A stretch of DNA of 64,000 nt from positions 27,315-91,314 of IMG/VR virus record IMGVR_UViG_3300042892_002114; one strand, written 5' to 3'. Below are positions 1 to 16,034 of the stretch, in pieces. A program made the translations under genes and the position numbers. The notes beneath the pieces are model-generated. The model searched no databases, was not told the DNA's origin, and saw nothing but the letters and a program-made list of their open reading frames with translations. The DNA comes from a virus. How positions within the stretch are numbered: the first letter of the stretch is position 1; each line of letters begins with the position of its first letter.

Positions 1-2969
1 CCGTTGAACACAAACCCATTTTCAATATATGGATTGTTCTTTTTCCAAAAACCTACCTTACTATTCAGTGCATATATAAGTTCCTTCACATCACCAGATA
101 CAGCAGAACGAATGTCTTTGCCTTGTGGATCAACAATCCTGAGTTTTGTGGTGGCTTGGGCTGGTTGACCATTTACGGTCTTTGACGTTTTGTCATCTAC
201 AGCAGCAACAGATTGACCAGACTCGGTCAATGATGCAATTGCTTCTCTGATTAGTTGCTTGGCTAGTTCTATACCAAGATTTGCGTCGTGTTTTATTTTT
301 TCAATATTTTTCATAGCTTCTGGTGTTTCTGCTTTTTCTAATTTTTTTGCAGTGCTGGCCGATTTCATATTTTTTATGAATGTATCCAGCACATATTTTA
401 CAAATTCTTCTCTGGATTTAAATGTTGTTCCATTCTTTGATACAACAACTCCTTTATCAAATGCTCTGTTATTATCAAGTGCTTTACTCAAAGCAACCAC
501 GGTTTCGCATTTTTTCTTTAATGATGGATCGTTTGCATCCAATCCATAATAACCTTGTAATACTGATGAATTTACTTTTGAAACACCAGCAAGATTGCCA
601 TAGAACTTCAATATATCCAAAAATACTTGATTTGGATTAAAGAACACAGGCTTTGAGTTTGTTTTGATCAGAGATGACGCAACCTTGCCATCTATCGTAT
701 TTATATATGGATTGGTGTTTGATCCCAACACAACATTAAGAGCATCGGATAATGCACTCAATAGATTTCCAGTAACAAATCCTTTTAGTCCTTTTTCCGG
801 AGTTGTTCTAATTTTTGTCCATTCCGATGATACTTTATATGACAAAACCAAATCAACTTGAATTTTTTCACCACCAACGTTGAATATTAAATATCCTGTA
901 CCAAAGTCTTTATCTTGAAAGTTTGGATATATATAACTTGGTTTTTTTTCTTGAATAAACTGGATAATCTTTTCTGAATACTTTTTATTAGATGCTAGTT
1001 GTGATGTTCTATCATTAGTTTCTTCTGGTAATATAATTTGAATATCTATATCACCATATTCTACACCATCTTTTTCTAAATCTTGTTTATAATACATTGC
1101 TGAACCTACCGGTCCATTGGATTCTATTGGAGGAAGATTTGAATATGCATTGAATTCTGAAACAAATTTATCCATTGCACTCAAAATATTTAACACTTTC
1201 TTTGGAGTTATAATAGTTGATTGTGTAGAAGTAGATCTCCAACCGCCTTCACCAAACATTTCTTTTTCTATTTCATTTACAACTTCCTCAGCAAAGTTTA
1301 TATATGGATTAACTTCTGATACCGGCTCTGGCTTGTTTGCTATGAGAGTATTCCAAATTTCTTCTTTGTCTTTGTTGCCGACCGGTGGAAGATTTTTCAA
1401 GAATGATTCTTTATCATTGTTCATCAAAAATTCACGCATTTTTGTGCCACTTACATTCACTGTAGCAGTTCTTTCTACACCAATTTTTTTAATTTTATTA
1501 GCAGCCAACAACTCTGGATACTTTTTTAAATCTTCATCTTTGAAGTTTATTTCAACATCATCTTTGTCAGAATACAAATTTATGGTTGGCATATCTGCGG
1601 CATCTTGAGTCAATCTTTGTTCCAACCACGCAAGTTCATGCATAATGGCCCGAACTGGAGAATCAACAAACTTTACTTTTACATTCTTTGGCAAAGATGG
1701 AATAAACACATCACTCCATAGTTTTACAAAGTCATCTCCCTTTATAGGAAACTCACCCTTCTTTATTCTATCGGAAGATGATGTATAAACAATGACTCGA
1801 TCATTTTCATTGGCTGCTTTTTCAATAAGCTTCCAGTGACCAATGTGCAGTGGCTTGCCAGCAATTGGAATAAGACCAAGAGTTTTGTTGGTTGATCCCA
1901 ACAACCCTTGTTTGGATGTCATCAAACGAATCGTATCATGAATATCATCTTTGATTTGAACAATGTTCTTTTTGTTGCCAGCAATCTGTTGTAGAGCATC
2001 AAAGAACTTCTTTAACTTTGGTTGATTCTTAGCAACATAAAAATTTGAATCTGAAATAACATCTTCTTCGGATTTTCCTTCAGTACCAATTGCGGCAAAA
2101 ATATTTTGTATCAATGCTCTGATTTGTTGAAAGTATGCTGAAGCGGCTTCTGGTTCAAGTTTATATGCGTCCTTCTTTGCACCACGAACTCCAGCATCAT
2201 ATTGATCGGCTTGCACCAACTTGAAGAACTCTCCATTATCAAGCTTCATTACCACACCTTCTGTTGTGCCACCCAATGTAGATGGAACAGCCAAAATAGC
2301 CTCCGAAAATTTTGTTACAACATCAGTCGGATTGGTCCAATCAACATTTGTTAGTTTTGATCCAAACAACGGATTCTTCAGCAGATTTTCCTTGCTGAGT
2401 TTTCCCTGAAAGAAGATAGGAAATGATGATATTTCCAACAAGTCTGCCATCTTGTTCACAGATTTGTAGTCTGTTATTTCTTGTTTCGGAATGGTATGCA
2501 AATCTCCGCCAACCACACGATACTGCACTTCACCATAACTTCTTAAAAACAAGCCACCCTTGTTGACATATGTACGAGTCAAAGTGTCTTTGTTTTGAGC
2601 AAACTCAACGCTAAACTCAGTACTCTTTGGAATGCTGTTAATCTTATTGTTTATCTTAGACAAATGATCAAATATCATGGAATATTGACCAATGCCAACA
2701 GAAGATTGGGATATATCACCCTTTTCTTTATCATTCAAATGAGCAAACTCTTTGGCATACAACACAGTTCCTTTGTATGCCACAACCCAATTCTTGGTAT
2801 AATCTGCTTTATCAACTTGCTGTGTACGCACCAATGTCAGTTTTGTTCCATCCACCTTTTCGGTGATGACCATGTTCTGACTTAGTATTTCATTGGCTCT
2901 TTTTAGACGCAGTGACTCTGTTTTTGGTTCAAAAATATACTTTTTTAGGTTTTTTATAGAAATGTCCAT
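1..2969 (-). CDS. Large multidomain nucleotidyltransferase (RNA/DNA-ligase-type adenylation domain + HIGH-family NTase + Pol-beta-type NTase), 3'-truncated by the window edge
   Basis: Manual translation from ATG at 2969 (MDISIKNLKKY...) stays open to base 1 (~989 aa). Motifs: ITEKVDGT (~2844-2867), EGVVMK/FFKLV (~2215-2261), GKPLHIGHW (HIGH at 1836-1847) with SGTKMR, GPVGS...YGDIDIQI (~1035-1115) and QVDLV. Confidence 0.85.
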   Translation of the reverse strand, partial: MDISIKNLKKYIFEPKTESLRLKRANEILSQNMVITEKVDGTKLTLVRTQQVDKADYTKNWVVAYKGTVLYAKEFAHLNDKEKGDISQSSVGIGQYSMIFDHLSKINNKINSIPKSTEFSVEFAQNKDTLTRTYVNKGGLFLRSYGEVQYRVVGGDLHTIPKQEITDYKSVNKMADLLEISSFPIFFQGKLSKENLLKNPLFGSKLTNVDWTNPTDVVTKFSEAILAVPSTLGGTTEGVVMKLDNGEFFKLVQADQYDAGVRGAKKDAYKLEPEAASAYFQQIRALIQNIFAAIGTEGKSEEDVISDSNFYVAKNQPKLKKFFDALQQIAGNKKNIVQIKDDIHDTIRLMTSKQGLLGSTNKTLGLIPIAGKPLHIGHWKLIEKAANENDRVIVYTSSSDRIKKGEFPIKGDDFVKLWSDVFIPSLPKNVKVKFVDSPVRAIMHELAWLEQRLTQDAADMPTINLYSDKDDVEINFKDEDLKKYPELLAANKIKKIGVERTATVNVSGTKMREFLMNNDKESFLKNLPPVGNKDKEEIWNTLIANKPEPVSEVNPYINFAEEVVNEIEKEMFGEGGWRSTSTQSTIITPKKVLNILSAMDKFVSEFNAYSNLPPIESNGPVGSAMYYKQDLEKDGVEYGDIDIQIILPEETNDRTSQLASNKKYSEKIIQFIQEKKPSYIYPNFQDKDFGTGYLIFNVGGEKIQVDLVLSYKVSSEWTKIRTTPEKGLKGFVTGNLLSALSDALNVVLGSNTNPYINTIDGKVASSLIKTNSKPVFFNPNQVFLDILKFYGNLAGVSKVNSSVLQGYYGLDANDPSLKKKCETVVALSKALDNNRAFDKGVVVSKNGTTFKSREEFVKYVLDTFIKNMKSASTAKKLEKAETPEAMKNIEKIKHDANLGIELAKQLIREAIASLTESGQSVAAVDDKTSKTVNGQPAQATTKLRIVDPQGKDIRSAVSGDVKELIYALNSKVGFWKKNNPYIENGFVFN

Positions 2970-2995: not shown

Positions 2996-5131
2996 TTATA
3001 TCAATTTTTTGACTTGTTTCAATACCATATCTGCTGATATTTCCTTGGAACATTCAAAGTTTTTGTTCCTTGGGCACCAAAACCAATCATTGCGACTAAA
3101 CTTGCAGGACATATCGTTCCAACAACCATTACAGACACTTTCATTGATTACTCTATATTCAGTATGAAACTCGCACAGACTCTTGGTAAATCCACTGATC
3201 AACACCACGGGCTTGCCCACGGCCCATGCCAACCAACTCAAACCAGAGCTTAGTCCAATAAAGAACTGTGCGCCTGCTATTTGAGCCATGCGTTCGTCCA
3301 GTGTAAAGTCGCCAGTTTTATCCACACAACCTTCTGGCATATAATTCATACTTTTGTCTACGCCAAAACTATTGTGTCGGTCAATGCACCATACTTCATA
3401 TCCATTGCTCTTTAGATAATCCACCACGGTCTTCCATCCAGTTTTATTGTTCCAATACTTTGCTTGACAAGTACTTTGAGTAGCAATACACACATATTTC
3501 TTCTTTACATTTTTATACTTATTGGCATCAAAAGTAATCTTTGGTTTGTATTCTATATTGGTCAAACCTAGTATGGTTGTGGCAATTGAACATAGATTGA
3601 GCAACCTTGGGTCGGTTGGAATATGATTCTTGGTATTTTCTCCATCAAAACATCCAATCTTGTATTTAGCATAATATGGATCTGTATACACATCCACTGC
3701 CAAAAATTTTATATTTGGATAATTCTTCTCAAACATTGGACGAAGTACTTTATTAAACACTGCACATTCCATTATACATTGATGTTTCTTCTGAAACTCA
3801 TCAACAGCACCAATCCACGCCAACAAATCTCCTAAACTTTCACTGTCCAATACAACTTTAACTTTTTTATTTTTTGGATCAAATGTGTGTTTTTCTACCA
3901 ATACATCATAACCATCTGATATGTCATATACCTCAACCACCCACTTGTTGAAATACTTTGTGGAAGTTGATGCCCACATATTATTTTTAAGTTTCGTTTC
4001 ATATACAACATGACCTGTATGAAAATCAATAAACTTGATCTTATAACTCTTGTCAACTGGACCGGGTATATCTACCTTAGCACCATCATCAAAAGTTATT
4101 TTAATTTTGTTTTCTGGTTTCTTTGGCTCTTTGTATACCACGTCTGTATTTTTATAACTATCAATCAACTGATTACCAAAAATACATTCACAATATTCGC
4201 TGTATAGTTTGGCTAAGTCATGTACTCTGTTGCTGTACGAATTTTCTTTGGCATTTTCCAATGCGGCATTTCTATATGCTTTATAATTTAATCTCACATC
4301 TTCAATACCATGAATTGCTTCAGATATGTCACGTGAAGTAACAACCATACCTTTGTATTTTTTTTCTTCAAACGTACCAACCACTGGCAACCCACATGCC
4401 ATTGCTTCTAATAATGTGAGGTTTGGATGACCAGCCTCTAGTTCAGAGAAGTGTAAAAATATATCATGACTGTTATATAACTCAATGAGCGACTTTTCAT
4501 CCAAGTCATATAACTTGGTCAACTGTTCATAGTTGTTGAGTTCGGGATCGAGTGTTTTGAAGAAGTTATCGTTGTTACGCGGACCAGCAATTGTCAGCGG
4601 TAGTCCCAACTGTTTGGCTGCTTGAATTGCAATAGCAAACCCTTTACGGTCTTTGCTTTGGTCATTAGCATATCCATTGTTGGCTACGCACAACAACTTT
4701 GGACTGCTGCTCATCTCTCTTGTTTTGTATGTAAAGACATCTGTATTGACGGCGTGAGAAAAGTAACGCAACTTTTTGCTGCCAAAATATGGTATCAAAA
4801 ACTTACATGGTGACAAAGAAAACACACTATTTTCAATTGCTTTAAAATTTTCTTTATACACATGCGATTCTTTGCCATACAAAAATGCGTGATGATCATG
4901 AATGCTAAAGATGTATGGAACACCGCGTTCATGAAGCATATTGGCGAGATTGGCCACGTGTACATGCACAACCATACTTTCATCATATTTAACATCATTG
5001 AGATATTTTATCTCATTACGGATGTTCAGCTTGTTCAATTCAAGATGATAATCCCAGATAATTTTTTCGATTGCACCCCACCCATTTGGTGGAATTGATA
5101 TAAGTCCCGGCGTAATATTGATTATTTTCAT
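2996..5131 (-). CDS. GT4-type glycosyltransferase fused to an Aah/TibC-like (autotransporter) protein O-heptosyltransferase domain
   Basis: N-half GT-B motif EAGHPNLTLLEAMACGLPVV. C-half has SLGDLLAW, QSTCQAKYWNN, FIGLSSGLSWLAWAVGKPVVLISGFT and the CNGCWN..CP..C cysteine cluster. Confidence 0.85.
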   Translation of the reverse strand: MKIINITPGLISIPPNGWGAIEKIIWDYHLELNKLNIRNEIKYLNDVKYDESMVVHVHVANLANMLHERGVPYIFSIHDHHAFLYGKESHVYKENFKAIENSVFSLSPCKFLIPYFGSKKLRYFSHAVNTDVFTYKTREMSSSPKLLCVANNGYANDQSKDRKGFAIAIQAAKQLGLPLTIAGPRNNDNFFKTLDPELNNYEQLTKLYDLDEKSLIELYNSHDIFLHFSELEAGHPNLTLLEAMACGLPVVGTFEEKKYKGMVVTSRDISEAIHGIEDVRLNYKAYRNAALENAKENSYSNRVHDLAKLYSEYCECIFGNQLIDSYKNTDVVYKEPKKPENKIKITFDDGAKVDIPGPVDKSYKIKFIDFHTGHVVYETKLKNNMWASTSTKYFNKWVVEVYDISDGYDVLVEKHTFDPKNKKVKVVLDSESLGDLLAWIGAVDEFQKKHQCIMECAVFNKVLRPMFEKNYPNIKFLAVDVYTDPYYAKYKIGCFDGENTKNHIPTDPRLLNLCSIATTILGLTNIEYKPKITFDANKYKNVKKKYVCIATQSTCQAKYWNNKTGWKTVVDYLKSNGYEVWCIDRHNSFGVDKSMNYMPEGCVDKTGDFTLDERMAQIAGAQFFIGLSSGLSWLAWAVGKPVVLISGFTKSLCEFHTEYRVINESVCNGCWNDMSCKFSRNDWFWCPRNKNFECSKEISADMVLKQVKKLI

Positions 5132-5215: not shown

Positions 5216-6196
5216 TTATTTCAATCTTACAAAACTTCTATTTTTTGGATCAAGTATGCTATTTTTATTAAATTTAATTAAGCGAGCATCACTGATTCGT
5301 ACAACAAATTCTTGGTTTTTTGGATTTATTTTAAAAACCATGCCCGTGAGCGAATTGGGTATAGTTTCGCATAAAACGTCATCAACATATACCTCCAACT
5401 TATCAGCTCTTGGACTTTTATTTAAATACACAAATGCAATGTCTGTCGTATTTTCTATCTTGAGCACGGTTGAAATACCAACCATGTCAGTCACAATTCC
5501 ATCCTCCGCGAACGCACTCATACCATGCTTACTGGTTGCAAAATATTTTTCAATTCCAATATTTTCAAGCATATGAACGTCTCCAAATAATTTTTTTCTC
5601 TCAACGCTCTTATACAAGAAACTTTCCAGCGTTCCATATGCACCAACTTCTTTGCAGTTAATTATATATTCGTCGGAGGAATTTGAAAACTTAAATGTAT
5701 TCTTAAAAAATTCAATTGATGAATAAAATATCGTTGAAACGAACACATAATCAAATTTTAAAAACATTGCTTTTTTATTGTTAGTTTCAGATATATTTTT
5801 TAAATTTTTTAACTTTATAACATCTTGTTCCGAAAATAGACAGTCACCTTCCACATAAACAAATGAATCATATGAATCTTTCGCAAAATTGACTGCGTTC
5901 ATTATAGAGCGAAACACTGCATAACTATGATTTTTATGATTTGCAAGTTGGTATATTCTAAAGAAAAACTTGGGATAATCCGCGTAAAAATTAACATTTG
6001 GATTTGATGGTATAAAATCGTTGCGACAATCGTATATAAAATATTTAACCATATTTTGTATTTCTTTACTAACCGGACAGTGCGTAACCAACAAAACATC
6101 AAAATCGTTATTAACTCTTTCCAAAACGGATTGTAAAACTTGTTCCGTTTTTTGCTCGGATGGGTATGAGCCAACTATCAATAGTTGTTTTTTCAT
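5216..6196 (-). CDS. Hypothetical protein, possibly GT-A-fold glycosyltransferase-like
   Basis: 326-aa ORF inside the glycosylation cluster; VYVEGD resembles a DxD-like motif. Confidence 0.5.
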   Translation of the reverse strand: MKKQLLIVGSYPSEQKTEQVLQSVLERVNNDFDVLLVTHCPVSKEIQNMVKYFIYDCRNDFIPSNPNVNFYADYPKFFFRIYQLANHKNHSYAVFRSIMNAVNFAKDSYDSFVYVEGDCLFSEQDVIKLKNLKNISETNNKKAMFLKFDYVFVSTIFYSSIEFFKNTFKFSNSSDEYIINCKEVGAYGTLESFLYKSVERKKLFGDVHMLENIGIEKYFATSKHGMSAFAEDGIVTDMVGISTVLKIENTTDIAFVYLNKSPRADKLEVYVDDVLCETIPNSLTGMVFKINPKNQEFVVRISDARLIKFNKNSILDPKNRSFVRLK

Positions 6197-7934: not shown

Positions 7935-10487
7935 TTAGAAGGGTTTGAATGTGTACCATTGTCTCCAATATGGCTCGCTAGTGGTTGAATAGACCTTTAA
8001 GTCATTCTTGGCCATAAACTCATTGACGGCTTTTCTGACGCCAAATTTTCCAGCATACACAGGTTCTTTTCCGGAACCTGTCAGCCAAATATCACCGTCG
8101 TCCGGAATATAATCATCGCCACAGAACAACCCACCTTTCTTTACCTTTGGCCACCAAGCTTTCATATCACGCACAACTCCTTCATAAGAATGATCGGCGT
8201 CAATATAAACAAAGTCAAAATGTTCATCTGGAAACATATGAGCACTGGCCGCACTGTCCATGCGAATGATATGAGCACGATTTTGCCATGGTTTGATGTT
8301 CTCACAGGTCTTCACCAAGCAATCGTAATGATACTTATCATCTTGACCGTTCATATCAACATAGCTGCTAAGATGACGCCAAGCATCCACTAGATATAGT
8401 TGACCTTCGTGCCAACGTTCCAATATTATCTTTGAATACTCTCCTCTGAGTACTCCAATTTCAATTCCTTTTCCGTGTGGAAACATATCATTGACCAATA
8501 CCGCCAAATCTCGCTTGTCCGGACATCCACGAGCGTCAAGCATTTTTTGCAAATCCGTGTTTCTATCATCAATCTTCACTTCCGATTTGGTTGCAAAAAT
8601 GAACCCACCCTGTGCGTGTAAGCTTTGGACGGTGCAATTGAACCCAGCCGTTTTCAACTGGTTCAATACCAAAGTTGCATCTTTTTCATAAGTTCTTCCG
8701 CCAATGATATGATATTCCATTAGAATATTATCAATCATAGCCAAATCCGAATCATCCATTGAAGCGAACAAATCATATTCAGCGGTTTCTATGTCCACCT
8801 TCATCAAATCAATCTTTTGGATGTTATATTTCGTCACAAACGATTTGAACGATGTTGCATCTACTTTATACGATGTGTCCGAACCATTCACATTTGCCAC
8901 CGATGATACGATGGAATTTTTGCTGTCAACAAAGAATTCAAGTTGACCATCTTTATTGGACATAGCTTTCTCTACAACCACAACTTCATCTCCAAAAGAA
9001 TTCTTCAATATTTTCAATGCATCCCTATTTGGTTCAACCGAGTAAACTTTTTGGCATTTTGCCGTGTGTTTTATATATTCTGTCCACAGCCCGATATTTG
9101 CACCCACGTCAACAACAGTGTTAAATGTCTTTCCGTGTAAATATTTGTCATATATCTTATCAACAAAGAATTCCGTGTAATTCATATATGTCGGCTGTGT
9201 GTCGTTTTTAAGAATAGATTGATATTTGTTGAATGCGGCGGGCTTTATGCGAAAAGTCTTGGAATCTAGCAATACACCGTTTTGATAAAATTCCACCAAC
9301 AATCCACCAAAGTATGGCTCGGTTTCATAATCAATCACGTGCTTCGGGGTAGGAATAATCCACCATTCCAAATTGGCAGGAAGCTGTGGATATTCAACAG
9401 CCCACACCACAGTGCGAGAATCCAGTTCTTTCACGGAGATGAGTAAATTATCTACGGTTTTATTGGCCGAGAATAGTACCTTGTTGTCTGTATTGTCGTA
9501 TTTTACGTTGAAGCGAGTCATAGATTTTTCTGTATATAGGTTTAGGGCTTTTAGTATTTTGTTTAAATTTTCATCCTTGCTATCATAATCAAGATATTTG
9601 ATATTTTCATATTTGTCATACATTCCCATATACACAGGAGAATTATAAATCAACGTTGGTATATTGTATGATATTGCTTCGCGTATAACCAATGGACTTG
9701 TTTCTTTGTCTCCATTTTCATCCTTGGACACAAACAGAAACAAATCGGCTGCTTGATAAAAATTATCCACATCTTTTCTTTCATTCCACCATTTGCAGTT
9801 GGATGGAAAATCTTTCATCAACGGTTCCCAATAGCTTCTAAAATTGTCTGCTTGATTTCCAATAAAATGAAACTGGATAGGTTGGTCTTTGAGTATTCTG
9901 GCATACTCAATAATTTCTTTTTGGTTTTTTCTTGATGTGAACAAACCAACGTGCACCACATGCTTTTTCTTTGGATCAAGACCCAACACTCTCAGTGCTT
10001 CTTCTCTTGGCTTTCTGGGGTTGATGAGAATAGGATATTCACAAACTTCGGACGGTACATCAATATCTTTGAGATTTTCTTTTTGATATTTGCTCACATA
10101 TATCAATCGGTCTGGAAAGAATACTTTACCTTTTGGATCAAAGCTGCTGTCATGCGATGTTTCAATGATTTTATATCGTCTATCTTTGATGTATATCTTT
10201 TTGGCAATATCATGGTCCATGAAATATTCTGGCATTTCTTCCAGATGCACAACGTCGGGGTCCAAATCTTTGATTATGTCAACTATTTTTGAGCGATCAT
10301 AGTTCACAGAAATCAACCTGTCTTTGAGAATTTCTTTTATTTTGTTCTTTTGTACTGTGAAACAGCCGTGGTCTGCATACTCAATACAATATATCTCGTG
10401 GTCTTTGTGCAAGACCTGTATCTTCTTCAACAAAAATTGCGGACAGCCACCCGTCGATAAATGCGGAGTAATATATAAAATTTTCAT
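7935..10487 (-). CDS. Tri-domain enzyme: GT4 glycosyltransferase + FkbM methyltransferase + class I (Methyltransf_24-like) methyltransferase
   Basis: HLSTGG..RKNQ..ETSPLVIREA; VVDVGANIG..MKVDIE; IEIGVLRG..FVYIDADHSYEG..GGLFCGDDY. Confidence 0.85.
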   Translation of the reverse strand: MKILYITPHLSTGGCPQFLLKKIQVLHKDHEIYCIEYADHGCFTVQKNKIKEILKDRLISVNYDRSKIVDIIKDLDPDVVHLEEMPEYFMDHDIAKKIYIKDRRYKIIETSHDSSFDPKGKVFFPDRLIYVSKYQKENLKDIDVPSEVCEYPILINPRKPREEALRVLGLDPKKKHVVHVGLFTSRKNQKEIIEYARILKDQPIQFHFIGNQADNFRSYWEPLMKDFPSNCKWWNERKDVDNFYQAADLFLFVSKDENGDKETSPLVIREAISYNIPTLIYNSPVYMGMYDKYENIKYLDYDSKDENLNKILKALNLYTEKSMTRFNVKYDNTDNKVLFSANKTVDNLLISVKELDSRTVVWAVEYPQLPANLEWWIIPTPKHVIDYETEPYFGGLLVEFYQNGVLLDSKTFRIKPAAFNKYQSILKNDTQPTYMNYTEFFVDKIYDKYLHGKTFNTVVDVGANIGLWTEYIKHTAKCQKVYSVEPNRDALKILKNSFGDEVVVVEKAMSNKDGQLEFFVDSKNSIVSSVANVNGSDTSYKVDATSFKSFVTKYNIQKIDLMKVDIETAEYDLFASMDDSDLAMIDNILMEYHIIGGRTYEKDATLVLNQLKTAGFNCTVQSLHAQGGFIFATKSEVKIDDRNTDLQKMLDARGCPDKRDLAVLVNDMFPHGKGIEIGVLRGEYSKIILERWHEGQLYLVDAWRHLSSYVDMNGQDDKYHYDCLVKTCENIKPWQNRAHIIRMDSAASAHMFPDEHFDFVYIDADHSYEGVVRDMKAWWPKVKKGGLFCGDDYIPDDGDIWLTGSGKEPVYAGKFGVRKAVNEFMAKNDLKVYSTTSEPYWRQWYTFKPF

Positions 10488-12830: not shown

Positions 12831-15800
12831 TCAAACGTGATTTATATGTGAAAATCCATCAATCTTCCTGATTTCCAGTTGTTTGTCTACCATGTCTCGC
12901 ATTGCGTCAATATGACTTATTATTATAATAAAATCAAAATGGGGCTTCAGATAATTAAATAACGAATGTAACATCGGAAAATTGGATGCATCCAACGCAG
13001 ATACCCCTTCGTCAACTACCAAAAAGTTGGAACGCGGTAGATTGCTGATGTTGATCAAGGATACTCTCAAAGCCAAAGCACTAACAAACTTTTCCATACC
13101 AGAGCATAGTTCCAATGGCCATTTTTTGTCATCATATTTGATATATACATTGACATTCTTGCCATCTGTTTCAATACTCATACTAAACTCAACCATTTGA
13201 GATAATATATTATTTACTTCTTGTTCAATTCTTGGAATGGCATCTGAAATAATTTTATATGGTACGCCATCTTTACCAATTGAAGTTAGATAATATTGAT
13301 AAGCAGCAAGCTCGTTTTCATACTCTTCTACTTTTTTGATTTGTTCTTCGATATTTTTTATTTGGTCTGTCAATGACACTTTGCGGCTATACGCATCCAC
13401 ATATTCTCGCTCAATATTCTTTAGTTTTGATGTTATAGTAGCAACATCATTTTTCAAATCGTAAACAGATGATTCAACCAGTTTGTTGCTTTCTACAATT
13501 TCTTTGGACTTTTCATACAACTCAACCAGATTGTCAATATCAACTATTCTATTAGAGTTTTTAGAAATTAAATTATTGAGATTGGATTTTTCCAGTTCTT
13601 TCTTGGAAATGAATGCTGTGAGTGTATTGATAGTTTCTTTGAGCAGCACACTTTGTTCATATTGAGCCACAAATGGTTCAACTTCTATAATCTGTGTTTT
13701 GATGGTTGATATGGCATCAAACAGTTCTCTTGCATCAGTTTTGTCGGATTCCAAACTATCTTTAGCAGATATAGCATCTTTTACAAACGCATTATCACAG
13801 CAATATTCACAATTTGGATCATATTTGTGGTTGGATAGATGTTCTATTTTCTTGAGTTTTTCTTTGACCACGAGCTTAAATTTTTCCAATTCTTGCTCAA
13901 GACGAGTTTTTTGACGAACAAAACTTGCATGCTTGTCCGATTTTTCTTTTAGATCATCTGGAAATGCAGATAGTTTATTGGAAGCATCCACATATTCTTT
14001 TTTCTTTGACTCTGTGTTTGTGTCAATAACCGAAATAGCATCAACAGATTGACTATTTTTTGTTTCTAAAGTTTCGCGCTCTTTTTTTAGAGCAAATACA
14101 TTTGTTGGCACATTTTCAAGTTTTATAATCTTGGCTTGTTGTTCAACGATTTTATTATCAAGTTCATTCTTCTTTGATGAATATTGATCGCGTTGACCAG
14201 TCAAATCAATAAGTTTGGACTCTGCCAATCCCAAATCATTTTTATTGGACTCAATCTTGACTTGATTGTTTTCTTTGTTGAATGACTTGATGGCACCTGT
14301 TAGTTCTTTTAGTTTGTCATTGCCCTTGGCCACAAGTTTATCAAACACATTTAGACCAATGAACTGACACAACAAATCCTTGCGTTCAGTTTGACCCATT
14401 TCAACAAACGACCCTTGATTGCCTTGTAATGCAAGTGAAGTTAGTACAAAGTCATCATAATCGCCGATATAATCACGAATGATTTCATTTGTGCTTCTGC
14501 GAGCTTCACTGTTGAGGCTAATCTTTTCGTCTTTCTCCATCTTATAGAAGTTTACATCAACTTTTACATTGCCTTTTTTATCTCTGATGCCTTTGCGCTC
14601 AATGATATATTGAATATCATTTATCTCAAATGTGAACTTGCCATGAAAAGACATTTTTTGTGAGTTCATCACATGAGTTGCTTTGAATGCTCTGGCACTT
14701 TTATCAAATGCTGTAAAGCATAATGCGTCCATCAATGATGATTTTCCGCTCGCATTATTTGCGAACAAACCATACACATCTTCCAGTTTAGTAAAGTCAA
14801 TCACATTGTTTTCACCATAACTAAACATATTACTGAACTCAAACTTGATTGGCTTCCAACGAATGTTGCGTGAAGTGTCATCTTTGCTCAAATCAGCATT
14901 GAGGTCTTTGTTGATTTTATGAACAGACTCAAGTGTGCCATCGTCCATAATATCTGGATATTTAGCTTTGAGTGCTTCACTAATAAGTTTATTTTGATAA
15001 TCAACATTGCCAATCTGACTCAAGTTGGCAGCAGCTTGAACACTTACAACTTTAGAAGCATCGTCGCCATCAACTCGCATATAAATAATGTCGCTGATTT
15101 CATGCGTCTTTTTGATTTCATTTACTACCTTTTTTAGTTCAGTAGCAATAGTTTCTTTGCAACGCACACGAAGTTTTGGCTTCTTGGGCATTGTGCTTAT
15201 ATCAGTCATCAACTTGCCGTCATCAATATCAATAGTGAAATAACCATAATCATTTGGTATTTCTACATGCTTGTATGCTCTGTTCTTTATATCCCACAAA
15301 CAAATGCCGTGACCAAGCAATGCTTCGCCATGATTTTGTTGAATAACCGAACCAGCATAACGAATGATTGGTTTTTCTGATACTGGATCGCACATTTGCA
15401 GATTTTGTGCCAAATGAATATCACCCAACAATGCCATATCATGACCATCAAACATATCATTCATGATACTCTTGTTGGTTACGGTATAACCCACATCAGT
15501 CTTGGCGTCAAATACACCACCATGAAATAAAGCAATCTTTGTATCAAACTCCGTCTTGATTTTCTTGGTCACATCTTTCATTTTTATAAATGAAGTATGG
15601 TCGGTGAAAATAGACATGTTATTTATAAGAATATTAGCAAATGAATACAACTTGCTTTCTTTTAGATAATAAAGATTGTCATGAGCCAAATTTTCTACAA
15701 TAGGAGTCAAACTATCCAATCTCGTTGTGTTTGTGAGAAGACAATCATGATTGCCCGCAATAACAATCGTAGGACGCAAATCAGATAAACTCTTTAGAAG

Positions 15801-16034
15801 GTCGCTCATGAGTTGAACACATTCGGGCGAAAGGTCAACTTTGCTGTGTGTGAGGTCTCCCGCTATAACAACCAATGTGTTTACTGGTGTCTTTTTAACC
15901 TCTTCATACACCTTCCCAAACACTTCACGATATTCTTCATGGCGTTTGGTCAAACGAATATGAATGTCCGCCATATGAACAATATAATCCACTCTGGTTA
16001 GATTGGTGTTTAGTTTCTCAAATGTATCTATCAT
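12831..16034 (-). CDS. Fused Mre11/SbcD nuclease - Rad50/SbcC ATPase (T4 gp47+gp46-like recombination nuclease)
   Basis: ADIH, AGD, GNHD, GDIH metallophosphoesterase motifs; Walker A ANNASGKSS, coiled coil with CEYC zinc hook, signature CSGME, Walker B LVVDEG, IISH. Confidence 0.92.
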   Translation of the reverse strand: MIDTFEKLNTNLTRVDYIVHMADIHIRLTKRHEEYREVFGKVYEEVKKTPVNTLVVIAGDLTHSKVDLSPECVQLMSDLLKSLSDLRPTIVIAGNHDCLLTNTTRLDSLTPIVENLAHDNLYYLKESKLYSFANILINNMSIFTDHTSFIKMKDVTKKIKTEFDTKIALFHGGVFDAKTDVGYTVTNKSIMNDMFDGHDMALLGDIHLAQNLQMCDPVSEKPIIRYAGSVIQQNHGEALLGHGICLWDIKNRAYKHVEIPNDYGYFTIDIDDGKLMTDISTMPKKPKLRVRCKETIATELKKVVNEIKKTHEISDIIYMRVDGDDASKVVSVQAAANLSQIGNVDYQNKLISEALKAKYPDIMDDGTLESVHKINKDLNADLSKDDTSRNIRWKPIKFEFSNMFSYGENNVIDFTKLEDVYGLFANNASGKSSLMDALCFTAFDKSARAFKATHVMNSQKMSFHGKFTFEINDIQYIIERKGIRDKKGNVKVDVNFYKMEKDEKISLNSEARRSTNEIIRDYIGDYDDFVLTSLALQGNQGSFVEMGQTERKDLLCQFIGLNVFDKLVAKGNDKLKELTGAIKSFNKENNQVKIESNKNDLGLAESKLIDLTGQRDQYSSKKNELDNKIVEQQAKIIKLENVPTNVFALKKERETLETKNSQSVDAISVIDTNTESKKKEYVDASNKLSAFPDDLKEKSDKHASFVRQKTRLEQELEKFKLVVKEKLKKIEHLSNHKYDPNCEYCCDNAFVKDAISAKDSLESDKTDARELFDAISTIKTQIIEVEPFVAQYEQSVLLKETINTLTAFISKKELEKSNLNNLISKNSNRIVDIDNLVELYEKSKEIVESNKLVESSVYDLKNDVATITSKLKNIEREYVDAYSRKVSLTDQIKNIEEQIKKVEEYENELAAYQYYLTSIGKDGVPYKIISDAIPRIEQEVNNILSQMVEFSMSIETDGKNVNVYIKYDDKKWPLELCSGMEKFVSALALRVSLINISNLPRSNFLVVDEGVSALDASNFPMLHSLFNYLKPHFDFIIIISHIDAMRDMVDKQLEIRKIDGFSHINHV

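Follow-up and report, generated by a model that had tools for sequence, protein, structure and literature searches.

Proteins known to be injected by phages include RNA polymerases, the ADP-ribosyltransferase Alt, and small inhibitors such as T4 IPI. Among enzymes that act on broken nucleic acids, the polymerase domain of bacterial LigD adds ribonucleotides and its ligase favours a nick with a 3'-ribonucleotide, ligases of the Rnl2/NgrRnl class seal nicks whose 3'-OH strand is RNA, and the repair enzymes of African swine fever virus (ASFV) are reportedly components of the virion. In systems built around RlaP, an RNA-ligase-fold enzyme is linked by operon or fusion to a nucleotidyltransferase of the Pol-beta superfamily; to our knowledge, there is no description of such systems being carried in virions. 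In phage T4, Alt and the internal proteins reach the core by means of a capsid-targeting sequence, and the protease gp21 recognises I/L-x-E motifs and cleaves behind their Glu (PMC3012670, PMC5694885, PMC12991175). Here we describe a giant open reading frame (ORF) located at the beginning of a 64,000-nucleotide stretch of viral DNA (hereafter, the window; IMG/VR virus record IMGVR_UViG_3300042892_002114), the product of which shares features with each of these systems.

We consider, with moderate confidence, that this ORF encodes a capsid-loaded, protease-cut, and injected fill-and-seal repair polyprotein of a T4-like jumbo phage. Packaging is probable because the junctions between the modules carry cutting motifs of the head protease; confidence is lowest for the repair function and its substrate.

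Architecture and relatives of the giant protein

The window corresponds to bases 5427–69426 of a 73.7-kb IMG/VR viral contig (L002), the CheckV completeness of which is 27%. The first-pass annotation, which was made from the letters of the window, had noted an open frame running off its edge. This frame is real: it extends without interruption on the minus strand from window position 2969 past the window start, and the full ORF, retrieved with the upstream DNA, occupies L002:4475–8395 and encodes 1306 amino acids. Residues 1–989 are specified within the window (3..2969), and the other 317 residues upstream of it (L002:4478–5428). The ligase, HIGH, and Pol-beta motifs quoted in the annotation were all found where it had placed them and are invariant across 43 relatives, down to ~42% identity. 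AlphaFold models built from family alignments for residues 1–575 (predicted local distance difference test score, pLDDT, 89.6) and residues 571–1306 (pLDDT 88.5) put these motifs in the folds that had been named. Both folds and motifs bear out the domain calls: three nucleotidyltransferase superfamilies and a fourth module, designated D1 to D4, are present in one polypeptide. All four are encoded on the minus strand.

D1 (residues 1–260; window 2190..2969) is an RNA-ligase-type covalent nucleotidyltransferase, as judged from its invariant ligase motifs and the fold model. It carries motif I EKVDG (residues 37–41; window 2847–2861) with the motif I lysine K38, motif IV EGVVMK (residues 237–242; window 2244–2261), and motif V FFKLV (residues 248–252), and the residues invariant in the 43 relatives are E37-K38-x-D40-G41, E122 of motif III, E237-G238 of motif IV, and K250 of motif V. 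In structure comparison of the model, the D1 fold is nearer to RNA ligases than to capping enzymes or DNA ligases. Its score against Pfam RNA_ligase (PF09414) is 21.9 bits, below the cut-off of 27, and that of the copy in the complete relative genome G001 is 25 bits. A helical region follows the ligase core (residues 261–357; window 1899..2189; DSSP helices at 259–357). Alignments of D1 with Trl1 and with the Aquifex ligase-like protein reach residues 339–346, and from the model this region may match the helical C-terminal domains of Rnl2 or Trl1.

D2 (residues 358–550; window 1320..1898) is a Rossmann-fold nucleotidyltransferase of the HIGH superfamily, similar to NMNAT, NaMNAT, and PPAT, and carries PLHIGH (residues 373–378; window 1836–1853) and SGTKMR (residues 507–512; window 1434–1451). 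The invariant residues P373-x-H375-x-G377-H378 and S507-G508-T509-x-M511-R512 constitute motifs of the (H/T)xGH and ISxTxxR types. The best structural matches of D2 are NMN/NaMN adenylyltransferases, and it has a profile match to the NMNAT family phrog_3462. Its scores against Pfam CTP_transf_like (14.6 bits vs 21) and NCBIfam nadR_NMN_Atrans (16.7 vs 341) are below the curated cut-offs.

D3 (residues 575–916; window 222..1247) consists of palm and thumb (approximately residues 579–817) followed by a helical tail, with the motifs GPVGS, GDIDI, and QVDLV at residues 619–623, 639–643, and 704–708, respectively. The invariant residues are G622-S623, D640, D642, and D706, i.e. the hG[GS] motif and the three palm carboxylates. 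The annotation had likened this domain to CCA-adding enzymes, CD-NTases, and toxin nucleotidyltransferases. The superfamily was correctly assigned, and within it the module is specifically minimal family-X-polymerase-like: in a fold search of the model, D3 resembles the palm and thumb of polymerases, including the whole of ASFV Pol X, whereas the CCA-adding and CD-NTase folds appear to match the Pol-beta-type modules less well and in the palm core only. cGAS, OAS, and CD-NTases are among the weak Foldseek matches. D3 starts at G575, and the alignments begin at about residue 142 of Pol beta, leaving it without the 8-kDa lyase domain and the helix-hairpin-helix fingers, both of which ASFV Pol X likewise lacks.

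The fourth domain, which had been predicted to begin near base 230, is D4 (residues 917–1306; L002:4478–5647), starting with S917 (window 219–221). Its first part (residues 917–989) lies at window 3..221, and a second set of motifs (GS...GDIDV...QIDFE) is encoded beyond the window edge. The residues G990-S991, D1014, D1016, D1085, and K1121-G1122 are conserved in at least 90% of sequences, and its profile matches phrog_19290. The similarity between D3 and D4 was weaker at first (BLASTP E 0.024; hhalign with thin profiles, E 0.023), but rich profiles aligned over 278 columns by hhalign with all motifs in register (probability 96.7%, E 4.7e-10). On this sequence comparison, D4 is a diverged paralogue of D3 and, by homology, would adopt the fold of a second PolX-like or Pol-beta-type module. 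When D3, D4, and eight relatives encoded as separate proteins were compared with Pfam, nothing meaningful was returned at E values up to 10, and the D4 profile had no match among PDB sequences. In the protein atlas, the matches are unnamed viral clusters plus one cluster with 33% NTP_transf_2 members, which is taken as a lead only, and those in BFVD are uncharacterised phage proteins and giant-virus PolX entries. Identification of D3 or D4 as RlaP (PF10127) was rejected: neither matches PF10127, and hhalign against the canonical RlaP of G001 gave a probability below 1%, a comparison of limited sensitivity as a single RlaP sequence was used. A complex prediction for ligase-HIGH (residues 1–560) and D4 (917–1306) scored 0.00, which is evidence in neither direction.

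At least 38 full-length homologues (1279–1372 amino acids, 51–97% identity) were found in independent JGI, ENA, Logan, and NCBI assemblies, and G001 (297 kb) contains a copy ~95% identical to the giant protein. Shorter relatives consist of the ligase-HIGH half and one of the two C-terminal modules. In the searches made here, the fusion of D1 and D2 occurs in no solved or named family; no paper describing the fusion or the family was found in the literature searched, and two surveys from the Aravind laboratory do not mention a ligase-HIGH fusion. The D4 profile identified 732 representative clusters at E <=1e-3, mostly standalone proteins of 370–420 amino acids. Among 35 non-redundant distant viral loci with a D4-like gene, a ligase-HIGH gene is present in 26 and is the next gene in 24. 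The two genes, which are always annotated as hypothetical, are also present in cultured phages of Campylobacter (CP220 group) and Vibrio (Va1 group). The ligase-HIGH protein is functionally tied to the PolX-like enzyme by fusion, by fission, and by the conserved operon. Some D4-like modules are joined to long extra regions in proteins of up to 1180 amino acids (P0119, P0150, P0170, P0179, P0183, P0213, and P0220), and BFVD entry A0A6J5TD12, a predicted viral protein of 1096 amino acids named ParB/Sulfiredoxin, also contains such a module; the module therefore has other partners besides ligase-HIGH.

Predicted cleavage sites and virion proteins

Two linkers of the giant protein carry predicted prohead-protease sites. 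Junction 1 (F572-G573-E574 / G575; window 1245..1256) is a low-confidence linker (pLDDT 54–72) followed by invariant GGWR and reads [LIVMF]-x-E / G-G-W-R. All of the ~57 relatives with the motif have Glu at P1, only one lacks a hydrophobic residue at P3, and P2 is occupied by 11 residue types. Junction 2 (L914-T915-E916 / S917; window 219..230) is a disordered linker (pLDDT <50 at model residues 343–350) followed by conserved SG(Q/K)S and reads [LI]-x-E / S-G-(Q/K)-S; P1 is Glu and P3 is Leu or Ile in all ~45 relatives with the motif, and eight residue types occur at P2. The giant protein contains 18 [LIVMF]xE sites in total, and only these two combine near-total conservation of P3 and P1 with a free P2 and a disordered linker. 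The remaining conserved sites are located inside catalytic motifs, and their P2 is fixed.

Junction 2 aligns exactly with the N-terminus, or with the end of the leader, of standalone D4-like proteins. Of 147 representatives of these proteins, 71 start with M/GGN, and 59 have leaders of 4–450 residues ending in [LIVMF]xE/GGN (per-site background of the [LIVMF]xE motif, 0.021); six of eight remaining representatives have Met directly before GGN. The Glu is not required by the fold, because the proteins starting with M-GGN have no Glu at this position. The Gly-Gly N-terminus of mature D3/D4-type modules (GGN or GGW) is invariant, and a free Gly-Gly end would arise in two ways: the initiator Met of M-GGN is removed, or the predicted cut after [LIVMF]-x-E is made.

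Many leaders in the relatives resemble those of the T4 internal proteins, which in the T4 record are MKTYQEFIAE/A (IPII/IPIII) and MKTFKEF...ITE/A (IPI). Examples are MKSFKQFLLE, MKAFKQFVIEEKLLTE, and MKKFKQFLKE, and the leader of CP220 gp100 is MKLSELMFILE/GGN. The pattern ^M..[FYI]..[FY] fits 10 of the 59 leaders, compared with 2.6% of shuffled leaders. Some ligase-HIGH proteins have leaders too, e.g. MKSFSQYLVE/SVKDDMM-DISIK, and both genes of the pair do so in contig L045. A gp21-type protease is encoded in G001 (PF03420, 88.7 bits), ~16 kb from the giant gene.

Virion proteins of a cultured relative, Campylobacter phage vB_CcoM-IBB_35, have been analysed by tandem mass spectrometry of virions purified with polyethylene glycol and CsCl (Carvalho et al. 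2012, PMC3322345), and 38 proteins were listed (PMC3322345 Table S2). One of these is the product of gene 1-56 (44,446 Da, 'no homologs'), detected in virions with 17.0% coverage (PMC3322345). By its coordinates this gene is the D4-like gene, and its product has the N-terminus MKLSELMFILE/GGN. Genes 2-25 and 2-24 are also in the list, with 2.9 and 23.7% coverage, respectively (PMC3322345); they correspond to residues 1–365 and 364–503 of CP220 gp026 (99 and 97% identity). The ligase-HIGH gene of IBB_35 (contig 2, HM246721 22806–26852) is thus split by a frameshift relative to the single 503-residue protein of CP220. The frameshift is perhaps a sequencing error or is bypassed, and peptides were reported from both parts. 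The ligase-HIGH protein of IBB_35 and CP220 has no leader and yet is present in IBB_35 virions; therefore, the missing leader of the giant protein is not fatal to the idea of packaging.

Genomic setting and neighbouring genes

The source contig is that of a T4-like tailed phage, with genes for a baseplate wedge protein, an SbcCD-like fusion, terminase, and portal, and the giant gene adjoins the terminase and portal genes. The large terminase subunit gene (L002:1–1725, minus strand) is located just before the window, as is a portal-like gene fragment (L002:1793–3448, minus strand), the middle of which matches HNH endonuclease families, consistent with the insertion of an intein or homing endonuclease. 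The 26-base spacer upstream of the giant ORF contains no clear T4 late-promoter box (TATAAATA) and no Shine-Dalgarno sequence. Other minus-strand genes of the window include a gene for a 711-residue protein directly upstream of the giant ORF (2996–5131), residues 1–253 of which match the phage glycosyltransferase families phrog_33732 and phrog_2170; a gene for an 850-residue protein (7935–10487) with two methyltransferase-type matches, phrog_8156 (residues 456–578) and phrog_2675 (662–797); and a gene for a 1067-residue fusion of SbcD-like and SbcC-like proteins (12831–16034; phrog_100 at residues 17–325 and phrog_77 at residues 295–1065).

In the relatives, genes of this family are found near head genes: in CP220, the gene is two genes from the portal gene, and a gene for the T4-type major capsid protein (Gp23) lies within two genes in six loci. 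Calcineurin-like phosphoesterases are encoded nearby in five loci and P-loop kinases resembling polynucleotide kinase in three. At one locus with split genes (L048), a gene for an HslV-family peptidase (5245–5790, plus strand) is present upstream of the pair and a phosphoesterase gene (8544–9128, plus strand; phrog_547, E 1.4e-39) downstream.

G001 separately encodes an ATP-dependent DNA ligase, an Rnl1-type ligase, a canonical Rnl2-type ligase (91 bits), and a canonical RlaP, with no ligase in the neighbourhood of the RlaP gene, and PF04095 (NadV, NAPRTase) has no match in this complete genome. Because the DNA ligase, Rnl1, Rnl2, and RlaP are separate there, the giant protein is neither the replicative ligase nor the ordinary RNA-repair set. 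Near the RlaP gene (L056; G001:94000–110000) are genes for an RNase T-like exonuclease, a cyclic-nucleotide-binding protein (PF00027), and, unusually among phages, a tyrosinase-domain protein of 496 amino acids (PF00264, E 1.8e-33). In the T4 RefSeq record, gene 57B, beside ipI (NC_000866 73952–74410), is labelled 'RNA ligase', an unexpected and unconfirmed label.

Proposed function, alternative explanations, and comparison with known systems

In the reading that we favour, the polyprotein would enter the prohead of a T4-like jumbo phage, where a gp21-type prohead protease would cut it after E574 and E916. The predicted products are a nick-sealing RNA-ligase-type enzyme with an NMNAT-like adenylyltransferase (residues 1–574, ~65 kDa), the minimal polymerase-X-like nucleotidyltransferase D3 (residues 575–916, ~39 kDa), and the second, diverged PolX-like module D4 (residues 917–1306, ~44 kDa). 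The mature enzymes would be ejected into the host together with the DNA, and early in infection a 3'-OH would be extended by one or a few (ribo)nucleotides through the PolX-like modules, after which the Rnl2/Rnl5-like ligase would seal the nick. Candidate substrates are the incoming phage DNA, mended via a ribonucleotide patch of the LigD or ASFV type, and host or phage RNA.

Several points weigh against this reading. The choice between RNA and DNA as the substrate is made by analogy, and the enzymatic activity is predicted. The prohead protease gene was found in the relative G001 but not in the genome of the present phage (G000), which is a 27%-complete fragment. The giant protein starts with MDISIK and has no N-terminal capsid-targeting leader, which leaves its route to the prohead core unexplained, and leaders are also missing from most ligase-HIGH proteins and from approximately half of the D4-like proteins that stand alone; packaging may not be universal in the family. 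With respect to the IBB_35 virions, gene 2-25 is poorly covered, at least one of the listed proteins is probably non-structural, and the authors saw no gross size shifts (PMC3322345), although the loss of an 11-residue leader would be invisible on a gel. Finally, D4 is absent from the fold-search lists obtained with the two-domain model, which were filled by D3.

The invariant Gly-Gly N-terminus may point to activation by cleavage. Since every member would end up with a free Gly-Gly end, it is suggested that activity, or the binding of DNA or RNA ends, depends on the new alpha-amino group; some repair lyases use N-terminal amine nucleophiles, which is a possible parallel. We therefore put forward, as a tentative and rather unlikely elaboration, that the nucleotidyltransferase modules are zymogens licensed by the head protease, such that ribonucleotide-patch fill-and-seal activity arises only inside the capsid. 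The polyprotein would then be inert in the producing cell and would repair the incoming genome once the host has nicked it, restricted it, or attacked it with glycosylases.

Among the alternatives to the packaged repair polyprotein, the one that survives best, although we hold it to be unlikely, is a cytoplasmic, unprocessed multi-enzyme for tRNA or RNA repair, in which RNA breaks made by anticodon nucleases of the host are resealed by the ligase, missing nucleotides are put back by the Pol-beta modules in the manner proposed for RlaP, and the [LIVMF]xE motifs are remnants or have a structural role. The affinity of D1 to RNA ligases rather than DNA ligases fits this explanation, as do the polynucleotide-kinase-like and phosphoesterase genes flanking the split operon in some loci and the absence of a leader from the giant protein and from half of the D4-like proteins that stand alone. 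Moreover, the logic proposed for RlaP systems is this same combination of RNA ligase and Pol-beta nucleotidyltransferase (PMC7824862). However, canonical Rnl1, Rnl2, and RlaP are already present in the complete relative genome, the gene sits among head and packaging genes, and homologues were found in purified virions. The junctions are conserved in the fashion of protease sites (P3 and P1 fixed, P2 free, and the linker disordered), and their P1 Glu is one that the fold does not need. Of the RNA (tRNA) repair multi-enzyme suggested in the first-pass annotation, the repair class is retained, whereas the tRNA-directed role is at odds with the separate repair enzymes of this phage lineage.

The protein might instead be packaged as an effector, a functional analogue of T4 Alt that transfers nucleotides to host proteins or to other targets that are not nucleic acids; it would then share the packaging signatures of Alt and the internal proteins. 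The invariant Gly-Gly N-terminus of mature D3 and D4 leaves room for such a role, and the Pol-beta-fold and HIGH-fold superfamilies include members that modify proteins and small molecules. We nevertheless regard such an effector as improbable: D3 specifically resembles polymerase palm and thumb, including the whole of ASFV Pol X, the partner that always accompanies it has a polynucleotide-ligase fold in which every ligase motif is present, and end-healing-type enzymes are encoded nearby in some loci.

The annotation had also considered restoration of NAD or nucleotide pools and interference with signal nucleotides, in which the NMNAT-like domain would restore NAD+ in the face of NADase defences and the Pol-beta modules would make or sequester signals. 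The structural and phrog_3462 matches of D2 speak for the former and the weak Foldseek matches to cGAS, OAS, and CD-NTases for the latter. This explanation appears improbable, as the complete relative has no NadV partner, D2 is always fused to a ligase-fold domain and never to the Nudix or kinase domains found in NadM and NadR, and every family score of D2 is under its curated cut-off. The genomic context lends no support to NAD restoration, and nothing supports signal-nucleotide interference; a repair or counter-defence toolkit, also proposed in the annotation, is still the best functional class. An artefact by which a sequencing or assembly error joined separate genes can practically be discounted: the same modules do occur as adjacent split genes in other phages and the ligase-HIGH gene of IBB_35 holds a frameshift, but the frame is uninterrupted, the linkers are conserved, and the fused homologues come from independent assemblies and sources.

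If the packaged repair polyprotein is real, it would constitute a new class of capsid cargo and a form of counter-defence in which damage is repaired on arrival instead of the nuclease being blocked; no description of an injected ligase-polymerase repair set was found in the papers and databases searched here. A role would be assigned to hundreds of 'hypothetical' phage proteins (the 732 D4-like clusters, phrog_19290, and phrog_27149), including Campylobacter phage virion proteins that had been seen but not understood. T4-type head loading would be able to handle very large multi-enzyme chains, a property relevant to T4-like capsids as protein delivery vehicles, and the compact PolX-like and RNA-ligase-like enzymes would be possible reagents. 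If the zymogen reading also holds, phages would have their first known case of counter-defence by injected DNA-break repair.

As cargo, the proposed polyprotein is closest to T4 IPI, IPII, IPIII, and Alt: relatives share leaders of the MK(S/T)(F/Y)xxF...[LI]xE type with IPII/IPIII and IPI, the I/L-x-E cut motif is the same, a gp21-type protease is encoded in a relative, and homologues occur in virions. It differs from T4 cargo, i.e. internal proteins that are small inhibitors and an ADP-ribosyltransferase (Alt), in being a 150-kDa chain with four nucleotidyl-transfer domains and predicted internal cut sites and in the lack of a leader on the giant form. D1 shares motif I EKxDGTK and motifs III, IV, and V with the nick-sealing RNA ligases T4 RNA ligase 2, Naegleria NgrRnl (Rnl5), and trypanosome REL1, but it scores below the Pfam RNA_ligase cut-off and is fused to a HIGH nucleotidyltransferase. 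The likeness to bacterial LigD end joining is a mechanistic analogy only, namely a nucleotidyltransferase making a short ribonucleotide patch joined within a single polypeptide to a ligase that prefers RNA 3'-OH ends: the LigD polymerase is primase-like and not of the Pol-beta fold, the LigD ligase is a DNA ligase, and LigD is cellular and unpackaged.

ASFV Pol X, a minimal family-X polymerase in a mini base-excision repair system, consists of palm and thumb only, as does D3, and has a ligase as its partner enzyme. There is no detectable sequence similarity between the two (17% identity in structural alignment with D3); the partner ligase is here of the RNA-ligase type (Rnl2/Rnl5-like) and not a DNA ligase, and two polymerase-like modules and an NMNAT-like domain are combined in a single polyprotein. 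RlaP systems share with this family the linkage of an RNA-ligase-fold enzyme to a Pol-beta-superfamily nucleotidyltransferase and the end-healing enzymes that are sometimes close by, whereas D3 and D4 are not RlaP by family model or hhalign and the phage lineage has a canonical RlaP of its own. The polyprotein as we read it would combine two known kinds of system: the capsid cargo of T4-type phages and the repair sets made up of a ligase and a Pol-beta nucleotidyltransferase.

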